In this document: positions 18,324 through 28,565 of the stretch, in pieces | Numbering within the stretch: the stretch's first letter is position 1 | Layout: every line of letters starts with the position of its first letter | Sequence record: OR352952.1 | Strand: one strand, 5' to 3' | DNA from: Escherichia phage AV122 | DNA: 64,000 nt | Position numbers and translations under genes: made by a program | Notes under the pieces: generated by a model | Databases searched by the model: none | Told to the model about the DNA's origin: nothing | Seen by the model: only the letters and a program-made list of their open reading frames with translations

Positions 18324-19643
18324 TCACACATAAAACACATCATAACGACCACGGGTAACACCAACATAAAGAAGTTGTTGGGCCAATTCAGCATCTGCAT
18401 AATGAATACAAGGCGTATAAATGAAAGCACGGTCTACAGACATACCCTGAGCTTTATGGAATGTTGATGCAGGAAGTGCTTTCACTTTACTAAACTGTGA
18501 TTTAGCATCCCAAAAATCACTCCACGGAGCTTTTCCGCCTTTGTTCCAATTTTTATAAGTTTCTGCCGTTTTACCTAAAAATAGGTTAAACTTATATAGC
18601 TCTTCATCAGATGAAATTATTTTAATCTTTTCACGATAATATTCATCATCGCCGTAAGTTTCTACTGTTAAATCCCAATGACGAATTAAGTATTCTCCAG
18701 GAACACCACGAGCTTTAACAAACGTTGATGTATACTCTGCTTCTATAATACGAACTAATTGTCCGTTATTAAAAATAATTTCTGACACAGGCTTTCCATC
18801 AATTTTATATGTTTTAATTAATGGTTCCTGCATTACAATAATTTCACCGACAATAAAATCTTTATCAGTTTCAAAAATCTTTTTACGAATAATGCTATTT
18901 AACTTGTCAACAGATTTATTCGTAAATGCCATTACGCGATTTTCAAACAAATCATCTAGTGATTTGACGATTGAAAAATAATTTACCATAAAATCGCGTA
19001 AAGCGGTATCACCAGTAAATCCACGTACTCCGTGCCCGTCAATGATTTTATCATAAATCCATTTACCATTACGAACATCAGTAGCTACATCAATAATAGG
19101 AGCATTACTGCGTTTAACTTCAGTAAGTTCACATTGATAAAAATCTTTATGTGTAAAGAATGGACTGATATAAGCAGTATTTTCTCCTGGATCAACAGGT
19201 CTAATTTGCTTATTATCACCTATTCCAATTATTGTGCACCACGGTGGAATAGTTGAAAGCAAAATTTTGAAGAGCTTTCTATCATACATTGACACTTCGT
19301 CGCAGATTAATACCCTGCATTTAGCTAAATCTGGTACTTCTTTTTGTTCAAAAAGAACGTTTTCTTCATACGTAACTGGGTTAATTTTAAGAATACTATG
19401 AATAGTACTTGCTTCTTTCCCTGATAGTTTTGAAAGAATCTTTTTAGCTGCATGAGTAGGAGCTGCTAAAATAATACCAGTTTCACCCGTAGATATTAAA
19501 GCTTCAATGATGAACTTAGTAAGAGTAGTCTTACCGGTACCGGCAGGTCCATTAATAGTTACATGGTGTTTCTTTTCTTTAATAGCCTTCATAACAATGT
19601 TAAAGGCATTTTTCTGGCCTTCGGTCAAATCATCAAATGTCAT
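18324..19643 (-). CDS. dda: Dda DNA helicase (SF1B)
   Basis: 439 aa; Walker A GPAGTGKT, Walker B CDEVSM; same length as T4 Dda. Confidence 0.9.
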   Translation of the reverse strand: MTFDDLTEGQKNAFNIVMKAIKEKKHHVTINGPAGTGKTTLTKFIIEALISTGETGIILAAPTHAAKKILSKLSGKEASTIHSILKINPVTYEENVLFEQKEVPDLAKCRVLICDEVSMYDRKLFKILLSTIPPWCTIIGIGDNKQIRPVDPGENTAYISPFFTHKDFYQCELTEVKRSNAPIIDVATDVRNGKWIYDKIIDGHGVRGFTGDTALRDFMVNYFSIVKSLDDLFENRVMAFTNKSVDKLNSIIRKKIFETDKDFIVGEIIVMQEPLIKTYKIDGKPVSEIIFNNGQLVRIIEAEYTSTFVKARGVPGEYLIRHWDLTVETYGDDEYYREKIKIISSDEELYKFNLFLGKTAETYKNWNKGGKAPWSDFWDAKSQFSKVKALPASTFHKAQGMSVDRAFIYTPCIHYADAELAQQLLYVGVTRGRYDVFYV

Positions 19644-25521: not shown

Positions 25522-25722
25522 ATGGTACAAAAATTAATGGCACTTGTTAATGCCATAAAAGGTAATAAAAAACGTATAGCTTTTACTATTTCTGCTATGG
25601 TAGGAATTTTACTCTGGAACTTTATTCTATCACCTGTTGCAATTGCGCATGGTATTAATATTCCAGTAGTTACTCTTGATACATTTGTAGATTTAGCATT
25701 TGCTTTAGTTGGGTTGATTTAA
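25522..25722 (+). CDS. small membrane protein on opposite strand (66 aa)
   Basis: Plus-strand ORF with strong SD AAGGAGG 4 nt before ATG; two hydrophobic helices; lies in the 56-61 intergenic space. Confidence 0.45.
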   Translation: MVQKLMALVNAIKGNKKRIAFTISAMVGILLWNFILSPVAIAHGINIPVVTLDTFVDLAFALVGLI

Positions 25723-26747
25723 ATCTTAGCATATTTAGATAGCCGCATTTTAGCCATCAACCCCTGGGCAATATTATTTTTCATATATTCCATAATTTGT
25801 TCAGGGGTTGCACCTTCCTTTCTAATCATATCATTGACATCTTTTGATTTCCAGGGAGATTTATCCCAAAACATAACCCTTTCTCCTGCATCAACTAATT
25901 TAGTCATTCGTTTGATAGTGTCAGGGTGACGAGGTTCATTATCTAAAACCCACACTCGTCTATCTTTAAATGGAACAACTTCTAGGTCTAATTGACCACC
26001 TGTAATAGCTATACCATTTTCAATAAAAAGTGAATCTATAGGTCCTTCTAGAACATATACATCACCATCTTTAACTCGTTCAACACCGTAAATTTTTGTT
26101 GCCTCAGGATAAGCTTTAATGGTGATATATTTTTGAGGAGCATCTTTCTTTAATGCACGTCCTTGAAAAGACTCAGCTTTTCCATTAGCATTATAAATTG
26201 GAATAACAAGACGAGGCTCAGAAATTTCCTTTTTGTATGTTCCCGGTGCTATGCTATTAACTAATTTAGGCCATTCGGTTGTAAACCAAAGATATTTCCA
26301 TTTATCCTTTGGAATACAACGAGCTTTTACATATTTTATAATTGGATGGTCTTCCGCCAGTTTATCTAATCTAACACATGACGGAAGAGATTTAATTATT
26401 TTCTTCTCAGGTTGCTTAGGAAGTTCTTTAGGTTTTTCTACTGGACGACTTTTACCTTTTTCTTTTCTTATTTCAAAGATATACTCACGATATAAATCGG
26501 GTTCAAACTCCTTTAAATATATTCCGATTGGTGCATGATAGTTACAGTTATAACAATGAATATTTCCTTCATTGTTATCACCATAATACCATCCACGAGC
26601 TTTATTCTGGTCGGTTTTTGAATCTCCACAAACAGGACATCTAAACCGCAATTTAAAAGTTGAACTATTATTTACTTGTGTGAATTTAGGTAAATGAGCT
26701 AATGCACGGTATGCAAACTCATTATCAATCCAAGGTATTGATGACAT
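25719..26747 (-). CDS. 61: DNA primase
   Basis: 342 aa (same as T4 gp61); N-terminal zinc ribbon CPVCGDS...CYNC plus TOPRIM core. Confidence 0.9.
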   Translation of the reverse strand: MSSIPWIDNEFAYRALAHLPKFTQVNNSSTFKLRFRCPVCGDSKTDQNKARGWYYGDNNEGNIHCYNCNYHAPIGIYLKEFEPDLYREYIFEIRKEKGKSRPVEKPKELPKQPEKKIIKSLPSCVRLDKLAEDHPIIKYVKARCIPKDKWKYLWFTTEWPKLVNSIAPGTYKKEISEPRLVIPIYNANGKAESFQGRALKKDAPQKYITIKAYPEATKIYGVERVKDGDVYVLEGPIDSLFIENGIAITGGQLDLEVVPFKDRRVWVLDNEPRHPDTIKRMTKLVDAGERVMFWDKSPWKSKDVNDMIRKEGATPEQIMEYMKNNIAQGLMAKMRLSKYAKI

Positions 26748-26749
26748 TT

Positions 26750-26914
26750 TTACTCTTCTTTTTCTTTAGATTCCTCTTTCTTCTTTTTAGGAATCTGTTC
26801 AGGACCTTTATTTACTACAGCACCTGACGTTGTTCCAGTAGAGATATTTTCAGGATTACCACCTGAATCTCCAGCGACCATATCTTCTTTAATAAATTCT
26901 TTATATGTTTTCAT
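26750..26914 (-). CDS. hypothetical protein (54 aa)
   Basis: Not in ORF track. MKTYKEFIKEDMVAGDSGGNPENISTGTTSGAVVNKGPEQIPKKKKEESKEKEE. Confidence 0.4.
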   Translation of the reverse strand: MKTYKEFIKEDMVAGDSGGNPENISTGTTSGAVVNKGPEQIPKKKKEESKEKEE

Positions 26915-26960
26915 ATTAACCTCTATTCATAAAAGCATTAAAAATTTGGTCATCAATAGA
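26913..26960. repeat. 48-bp direct repeat, copy A (gene-junction repeat)
   Basis: 45/48 identical to 27271-27318; covers start codon, intergenic base(s), stop and last 14 codons (...DDQIFNAFMNRG). Confidence 0.85.
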
Positions 26961-27272
26961 TGGCGCAGTAATATTTTCTGCATCATTTAGCAAATCATTA
27001 ATTTCATCAGATAGCATAACACATGTACCTTTATTTCCTGTAATTGTTACTGCACAATTACGAACGTTTTCTTTATCAAATTTTAGGTTAATATTTTCGT
27101 AGTGAAAATCCTTTAATGCCGAATATATCTTTAAAATGAAATTGTCTTTTACTACAATAAACCCAACCTCACTATTAAAACGCGGTTCATGGAAACTGTA
27201 ATAAACCTTTTCATCTATAAAATCGTATGAAATTTTTTCCATTTTTAAATATGAAAATTCAGAACTATACAT
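26916..27272 (-). CDS. hypothetical protein, partial paralog of 27274-27900
   Basis: 118 aa; VGFIVVKDNFILKIY... and C-terminal SIDDQIFNAFMNRG align with the C-terminal half of the upstream 208-aa protein. Confidence 0.55.
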   Translation of the reverse strand: MYSSEFSYLKMEKISYDFIDEKVYYSFHEPRFNSEVGFIVVKDNFILKIYSALKDFHYENINLKFDKENVRNCAVTITGNKGTCVMLSDEINDLLNDAENITAPSIDDQIFNAFMNRG

Positions 27273-27318
27273 ATTAACCTTTATTCATAAAAGCATTAAA
27301 AATTTGATCGTCAATAGA
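27271..27318. repeat. 48-bp direct repeat, copy B
   Basis: See 26913-26960. Confidence 0.85.
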
Positions 27319-27900
27319 AACTTTTACTTTAGGCTGTTCTTCAAACGGTAATTCATATCCACATATTACAATTTTGTGATCGATACCAAAATACACAGAA
27401 GCAATATTATTAATATTATTTTCAGTGAAATCTAAATCAACATCAATATCTTTTTGACCACAGCCCAAAGGATAAATAATGCGAGTAATTCGATTATCTT
27501 TAACAAATATTCCACCGACATACTCTGTGCTGCGTTTAAAGTCTACACGCCGACGAAATGAAAAATATTCAGGCTCTTTATGAGCTCGGCTCATAGGACA
27601 CAACGAGTAACTAGAATAAGAGATGTCAAATCCTACACCTTCGATATGAGCCAAAGTGTCATGATTAAACCAATTATAATCGTACGCCAAATCCATTAGA
27701 TTATAATATGTAAAAGGCACCGGATTAACATCATTAGTCACAAGCATGTAATTAGCAACTGCTATAATTTCATTGTTTTTAACGAATACAAACCGTGATT
27801 GATGCGAATGACCTGGACCCGCGTTTTCACGATTAATGATATAACACTGGGCACCTTTATATTTGTATGTATCTTTGCACTTGTGCATTTGATAGAGCAT
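27274..27900 (-). CDS. hypothetical protein (208 aa)
   Basis: 208-aa ORF; C-terminal half duplicated in the downstream 118-aa ORF. Confidence 0.6.
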   Translation of the reverse strand: MLYQMHKCKDTYKYKGAQCYIINRENAGPGHSHQSRFVFVKNNEIIAVANYMLVTNDVNPVPFTYYNLMDLAYDYNWFNHDTLAHIEGVGFDISYSSYSLCPMSRAHKEPEYFSFRRRVDFKRSTEYVGGIFVKDNRITRIIYPLGCGQKDIDVDLDFTENNINNIASVYFGIDHKIVICGYELPFEEQPKVKVSIDDQIFNAFMNKG

Positions 27901-28253: not shown

Positions 28254-28565
28254 TTATTTTAAAACTTCTGCGTAATCACATGTTACAAACTGTTTCTCTA
28301 GCTTAACGATCTTACGAAAATACCTTTTACACTGACGAATCTGTCGCTTCGTAGGACGTACAGCAAACTTAATAAATTCCACTCGACCAAATGGAGGACT
28401 TTCTTCTGCTGGAATATCTAACACCAATTCCCACGTATCTGCAATAAGTGCTTTAAATTGTGTATTTTTCCTGACGTTATACGGAGTAGGTTTAAATAAA
28501 ACAATATGCATATTATCCTCGGCAATCCACTTCACATACTTTCTTGTCATCAATGAAAGCTTCAA
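28254..28565 (-). CDS. hypothetical basic protein (61.4-like position)
   Basis: 103-aa ORF overlapping dmd by 52 nt in another frame; true start probably internal. Confidence 0.45.
   Translation of the reverse strand: MKLSLMTRKYVKWIAEDNMHIVLFKPTPYNVRKNTQFKALIADTWELVLDIPAEESPPFGRVEFIKFAVRPTKRQIRQCKRYFRKIVKLEKQFVTCDYAEVLK

Follow-up and report, generated by a model that had tools for sequence, protein, structure and literature searches.

The region of phage T4 that contains dmd, tifA and adfA has been called an anti-TA island, and T4 is known to rearrange it via short homologies (PMC9391042). The product of its adfA gene, gp61.2, is anti-DarT factor A (LeRoux et al. 2022, as cited in PMC11825919 and PMC9391042), and T2 is described as naturally lacking an adfA homolog (PMC11825919). 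In the dmd-tifA amplifications of T4 the units are recent and identical, with microhomologies of 6-10 bp (PMC9391042). Gene shuffling at repeated regulatory motifs is also documented in T4-type phages (PMC2839356): in this PeSL-mediated shuffling, the motifs are intergenic and consist of sigma-70-type early promoters plus a terminator stem-loop. Another class of T4 signal, the middle promoter, has a MotA box with the consensus wwwTGCTTtA near -30 and a -10 element, TAnnnT, at a spacing of 12 +/- 1 (PMC2988021). One of these, P61, is listed with its start site at 19122 in Table 1 of Hinton's review (PMC2988021, citing Marshall, Sharma and Hinton 1999).

Here, we describe a pair of direct repeats in a 64,000-nucleotide stretch of Escherichia phage AV122 (OR352952.1), the whole of which we call the window, and which over the 1.5 kb tested has 100% identity to the Tequatrovirus PhiZZ6, a Citrobacter phage. 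The genes of the region are all on the minus strand: 61, 61.1, an ORF of 118 aa, an ORF of 208 aa and sp, then 61.4, dmd and 41. The repeats are identical at 46 of 49 bases and lie 358 bp apart. The genes and repeat copies are the following.

25719-26747, minus strand: DNA primase gene 61, which P61 serves
26750-26914, minus strand: gene 61.1 (54 aa), downstream of copy A
26912-26960, minus strand: repeat copy A, made up of the end of the 118-aa gene (14 codons, SIDDQIFNAFMNRG), its stop TAA, a single base, then the start codon ATG of gene 61.1
26916-27272, minus strand: 118-aa gene (phrog_4122), an apparent one-domain relative of AdfA
27270-27318, minus strand: repeat copy B, made up of the end of adfA (14 codons, SIDDQIFNAFMNKG), its stop TAA, a single base, then the start codon ATG of the 118-aa gene
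27274-27900, minus strand: adfA (T4 gene 61.2, anti-DarT factor A), 208 aa, Pfam PF23813
27900-28193, minus strand: sp (spackle), the upstream boundary of the variable slot

A preliminary description of this DNA had claimed a repeat of 45/48 nt at the ends of both genes, and it is present as placed, with 46/49 bases over its 49-base span; the coordinates then given for the two ORFs (26916-27272 for 118 aa and 27274-27900 for 208 aa) are likewise correct. A search of the whole 64 kb allowing three mismatches returns these two copies only, and 100 shuffles of the sequence returned none, such that none is expected by chance. On the coding (minus) strand each copy runs through 14 codons (SIDDQIFNAFMN-K/R-G) and the stop TAA, and after one further base reaches the start ATG of the following gene. 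The copies differ at three bases: GAC GAT in place of GAT GAC, which makes two synonymous changes, and AAA in place of AGA (Lys/Arg). In T4, the end of 61.2 together with the start of 61.1 has exactly the sequence of copy A.

We hypothesize that the repeat is a module under overlapping constraints, ending paralogs of the adfA family that are old or have been reshuffled, and that its two copies allow exchange of the 358-bp unit; we consider this explanation probable. What the sequences establish is the repeat, the paralogy of the two genes, their three natural arrangements, and the identity of copy A to the mapped promoter P61.

The correspondence with P61 is base for base: copy A has the T4 MotA box (TAATGCTTTT), a 12-base spacer and the -10 element TAATAT, and in T4 this hexamer ends at 19129, exactly 7 bases before the start at 19122. 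The window differs from T4 in having a second copy 358 bp upstream with one spacer base changed, and both copies satisfy the MotA box consensus and the spacing of 12 +/- 1. In the record of phage Lutter, a 27-base promoter is annotated in both copies. The signals in the window are the following.

26931-26940, minus strand: MotA box of the P61 ortholog (TAATGCTTTT), 9/10 to wwwTGCTTtA, inside the codons Asn-Ala-Phe-Met
26913-26918, minus strand: -10 element TAATAT of the P61 ortholog, formed from TAA, one base and the AT of ATG; spacer 12 bases
27289-27298, minus strand: putative second MotA box (copy B), same sequence as in copy A, 9/10 to consensus
27271-27276, minus strand: putative second -10 element TAATAT (copy B), spacer 12 bp
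26920-26923, minus strand: Shine-Dalgarno GAGG for 61.1, within the Arg-Gly codons AGA GGT, read from the sequence
27278-27281, minus strand: Shine-Dalgarno AAGG of copy B, weaker, read in the same way

The start predicted for copy A (26906) is inside 61.1, and its transcript would therefore serve the primase gene 61; that predicted for copy B (27264) is inside the 118-aa gene, and this second promoter copy may be active. The ribosome-binding site in the Arg-Gly codons is retained irrespective of the gene downstream. More distant genera have imperfect MotA boxes (TGCCTT, TGCATT), and for this reason the promoter constraint may be specific to Tequatrovirus. A scan found no sigma-70-type promoter and no terminator-like site or stem-loop inside the repeat, and promoter and terminator signals across the region were in no excess over shuffles.

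The match of the 54-aa gp61.1 (window 26750-26914) to a 156-aa family (phrog_2086) is limited to the C-terminal third of that family, and 61.1 is thus also modular, as versions of 155 aa or 92 aa are found in Mosigvirus-like loci (L016 3079-3546 and L043 1818-2096, respectively). The tail is followed in Dhakavirus-like genomes by a 73-aa paralog of 61.4 (TifA) in place of 61.1, with the same GAGGTTAATATG junction (L008 2859-3080, L009 2811-3032, L013 2565-2786). The 61.4 (tifA) ORF of the window itself (28254-28565, minus strand) has 103 aa when read from a TTG overlapping dmd; T4 61.4 is annotated with 85 aa, and the true start is probably an internal ATG. On the far side of the primase gene, T4 has dam between genes 56 and 61; in its place the window has a 66-aa ORF on the opposite strand (25522-25722, plus) that converges on the primase gene and is also present in T2 and phage Lutter.

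Three kinds of gene close with the peptide that the repeat encodes, namely AdfA (208-216 aa), the 118-aa family, and a third family of 143-148 aa (phrog_8539; phages JS10, Bp7 and WG01). Within this peptide, DDQIFNAFM is invariant in all three families at the locus, across genera, while synonymous sites vary between genera (GCT/GCC/GCA, TTT/TTC, CAA/CAG, AGA/CGA), from which we conclude that the peptide itself is under selection. In IMG/VR the tail motif is confined to 16 contigs, always at this locus directly downstream of sp, with one or two per genome. The tail does not seem to fit the PIP-box or the beta-clamp consensus sequence. In two Dhakavirus-like contigs (L008, L009) a third-family gene stands next to a 118-like gene, the third-family gene coming first; an origin of AdfA by fusion of the two is unsupported. 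Without its tail, a third-family HMM gave AdfA and the 118 family scores of 3-9 bits, a range that shuffles also reached (maximum 9.4). Sequence thus gives no support for homology of the third-family body, and hhalign did not tell the N and C halves of AdfA apart in the fusion test.

The 208-aa protein is a full-length member of AdfA: it scores 455.6 bits against Pfam PF23813 over profile positions 1-211, it is named AdfA in the record of one relative, and it has the ~210 aa and, in its AlphaFold model, the two domains of the full-length protein. That model is of moderate confidence (pLDDT 68.5) and has one strand-rich domain in two tandem copies followed by the tail helix. Residue 165 is Asn (NNINNIAS; window 27406-27408, minus strand), at the position of RB69 R164, where T4-type proteins have His and RB69 has Arg, such that the DarT1-active His is absent from the AdfA of the window. 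The change R164H in RB69 creates DarT1 neutralisation, and the Asn allele carried at this position by the window recurs in a cluster of 94 sequences (P0010). The N terminus of AdfA is of two types, one of 208 aa starting MLYQMHKCKD and one of 210 aa starting MIYYMHKNPPFKYGKFPDAQ; the 5' end of adfA is mosaic over ~166 bases (window 27735-27900), and for tail-less adfA 255 of 486 phage records match the 3' 416 bases only.

The 118-aa protein, a member of phrog_4122, scores 31.9 bits against PF23813 (gathering threshold 27), over profile positions 113-211 only. [quoted passage not shown] Independently of the tail, the homology of the two bodies is weak, and we rate it as real but distant. An HMM of the 118 family without the tail matches all 17 AdfA sequences at two places (around residues 35-74 and around 120-175), at 10.6-24.9 bits versus a maximum of 8.6 in 960 shuffles; profile positions 19-115 of the full family align with AdfA residues 112-210 (E 3.6e-8); and in a HMMER search of 1.84 billion representative proteins, the full profile found its own family, AdfA and one odd repeat protein only. 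The probability assigned by hhalign to the match between the 118 family and AdfA is 2-15%. Six tandem stretches of a 968-aa protein of the representative library (P0065) match positions 52-82 of the 118-family profile, with E 4e-5 for the whole representative library.

Structure prediction points in the same direction. For the 118-aa protein, AlphaFold predicts (pLDDT 83.6) five strands followed by helix, strand and helix, with a detached, poorly packed helix at the C terminus, and each half of the AdfA model has its elements in the same order; judging from these models, AdfA looks like two copies of a domain and the 118-aa protein like one. The AdfA helix with the DarT1-specificity residue (F-D/T-x-x-N-V/I-x-x-x-A) is conserved in the 118-aa protein, but this protein differs from AdfA in having a single domain in place of two, and hence not the full-length architecture of ~210 aa, and its body has ~33% amino-acid identity to the C-terminal half of AdfA. 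No NCBIfam models were found for the three proteins, and all Foldseek matches in BFVD were relatives encoded at this locus (a 118-like protein, AdfA, VR25 of 145 aa and fPS-65 of 157 aa). The 118-aa protein may be a binder of the AdfA type, directed at a toxin or defence protein with another specificity.

The preliminary description had suggested comparing T4, T2 and T6, and the comparison reveals that the two genes occur separately as well as together: T4 and T6 have adfA only (sp-adfA-61.1), and T2 has the 118-aa gene without adfA (sp-118-61.1). Junction-specific searches of the phage collection found the adfA-to-118 junction in ~157 records, sp-to-118 in ~141, and adfA-to-61.1 in ~172; the first two (both genes, and the 118-aa gene only) add up to the 298 records in which the 118-aa gene occurs. 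The 49 bases adjoining 61.1 do not differ between T4, where they close adfA, and T2 and the window, where they close the 118-aa gene; T4 therefore equals the window minus exactly one 358-bp unit. Homologous recombination between direct repeats of ~49 bp would excise or insert this unit exactly, and we propose that phages with adfA alone, the 118-aa gene alone, or both have arisen through such excision or insertion. The earlier suggestion of a recombination site beside the primase gene is plausible, and the copies bracket precisely the unit that T4 lacks; the notion that the repeat is a neutral scar of a junction did not hold. The T2-type sp-to-118 junction is not a simple product of recombination between tails. 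A simple microhomology deletion of adfA does not reproduce it either, and in the intergenic stretch between sp and the 118-aa gene of T2 (TTAGAGGTTAGT; L004 2358-2369, minus strand) only the ribosome-binding part of the tail is kept.

How the repeat came about can be explained in other ways. That collapsed or duplicated reads produced the repeat, the outcome which by the earlier account would have undone its claim, has only the general assembly risk of repeats in its favour and can be considered negligible: the same arrangement, with its adfA-to-118 junction, is present in 157 independent records from many laboratories, and the unit between the repeats is a distinct ORF, with dN/dS of 0.16-0.35 for the 118-aa gene indicating a protein-coding gene under purifying selection. 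The preliminary description had itself favoured a recent segmental duplication, in which the 3' half of adfA was copied in tandem and the 48-bp stretch is the junction, still identical. The genes are indeed neighbours on one strand, their homology covers the C-terminal half of AdfA, and T4 readily forms tandem duplications between short homologies (PMC9391042). However, the units are not near-identical throughout: codon-aligned identity is 93% over the 14 tail codons and falls at a sharp boundary to 42% for nucleotides and 33% for amino acids over the 86 aligned body codons, which makes the duplication of adfA and the 118-aa gene ancient. Moreover, members of the 118-aa family are found at 75%, 46-49%, 37% and 33% identity, those at 46-49% (dS ~2.8) being orthologs in other T-even genera, on Dhakavirus-like contigs with a primase ~60% identical to that of the window; the 118-aa gene occurs without adfA in T2 and ~141 records; and a third gene family ends with the same tail. 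A recent duplication is accordingly rejected as very unlikely.

Neither can the likeness of the tails easily be ascribed to selection on a 14-residue peptide combined with AT-rich codon bias, with no function or exchange at the DNA level. This explanation draws on the invariance of the peptide in three families and several genera and on the change of synonymous sites between genera, but in simulations with the peptide fixed and the codon usage of the window, 6.8 synonymous differences between the tails were expected versus 2 observed (P = 0.014), and both of these are upstream of the MotA box. The low synonymous divergence fits overlapping constraints, the invariant part coinciding with the mapped P61 promoter and ribosome-binding site. 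Tails within one genome also share synonymous choices (3/49 bases differ within L009, versus 8 between the third-family tails of L009 and L014), which suggests gene conversion, although concerted evolution of the tails and lineage codon bias are not separable on present data. We thus regard peptide selection plus codon bias as improbable on its own. A better candidate, possible though we do not favour it, is that the 118-aa gene did not arise in place but was inserted as a cassette from another T-even lineage by recombination at the tails, the repeat marking its boundaries. Consistent with this, the three arrangements are at similar frequency among close relatives, the 5' part of adfA is itself mosaic, the tail beside 61.1 is identical whichever gene ends there, and shuffling of this general kind has precedent in T4-type phages (PMC2839356). 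Against it, the direction of change, insertion or deletion, is unreadable from the sequences, and a donor lineage with a distinct flank signature is not identified; such an insertion would furthermore bear on how the arrangement came about recently, and it does not conflict with a module under overlapping constraints.

In the explanation that we favour, namely such a module ending old or reshuffled paralogs, the slot between sp and 61.1 of T-even phages would hold a family of small accessory genes that all end in the same module, adfA and the 118-aa gene being old paralogs, or genes reshuffled between phages, and not a fresh duplication. The module would have to satisfy four constraints at once: it would encode the invariant C-terminal helix DDQIFNAFM; hold the MotA-dependent middle promoter P61, starting inside 61.1 and feeding the primase gene; provide, in its Arg-Gly codons, the ribosome-binding site of the next gene; and link two reading frames through TAA-N-ATG. 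We propose that these overlapping constraints, probably with occasional gene conversion, have kept the copies near-identical while the bodies drifted. A striking repeat is in this way explained without a recent event, 49 bases being shared by a peptide, a promoter, a ribosome-binding site and a stop-start junction, and the direct repeats offer a simple mechanism for the presence and absence of genes in the anti-TA island.

A more speculative extension, which we put forward tentatively and think rather doubtful, is that the 14-codon tail is a portable 3' module and the slot after sp a cassette site that diversifies AdfA-like inhibitors. If so, any frame recombining in-frame upstream would gain a conserved C-terminal docking helix and leave intact the promoter, ribosome-binding site and start codon of the following gene; T-even phages would diversify their toxin or defence inhibitors in this way (adfA, the 118-aa gene and the 143-148-aa third family), and the 118-aa protein would be an uncharacterised counter-defence factor, present in T2. 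As a feature of a variable region the repeat is ordinary; the 118-aa gene is an uncharacterised member of a known family in a known variable region, and the understanding of T4 biology is unchanged, the result being a modest refinement.

Relative to the known systems, T2, described as having no adfA homolog (PMC11825919), carries a 118-aa relative of AdfA, and since studies of counter-defence to DarTG have regarded T2 as devoid of adfA, the 118-aa gene becomes a candidate in screens for anti-toxins. The locus shares its genomic neighbourhood and recombination machinery with the dmd-tifA amplifications of T4 (PMC9391042), but in place of recent, identical units at short microhomologies it has ancient paralogs and a 49-bp functional module. 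By analogy, the closest concept for a recombination role would be PeSL-mediated shuffling (PMC2839356): in both cases, accessory genes of a variable region have short, conserved regulatory repeats on either side, and these repeats coincide with insertion, deletion and replacement differences among close relatives. Different from the PeSLs, the module of the window is inside coding sequence, has a promoter of the MotA-dependent middle type, is without a stem-loop, and encodes a conserved peptide.
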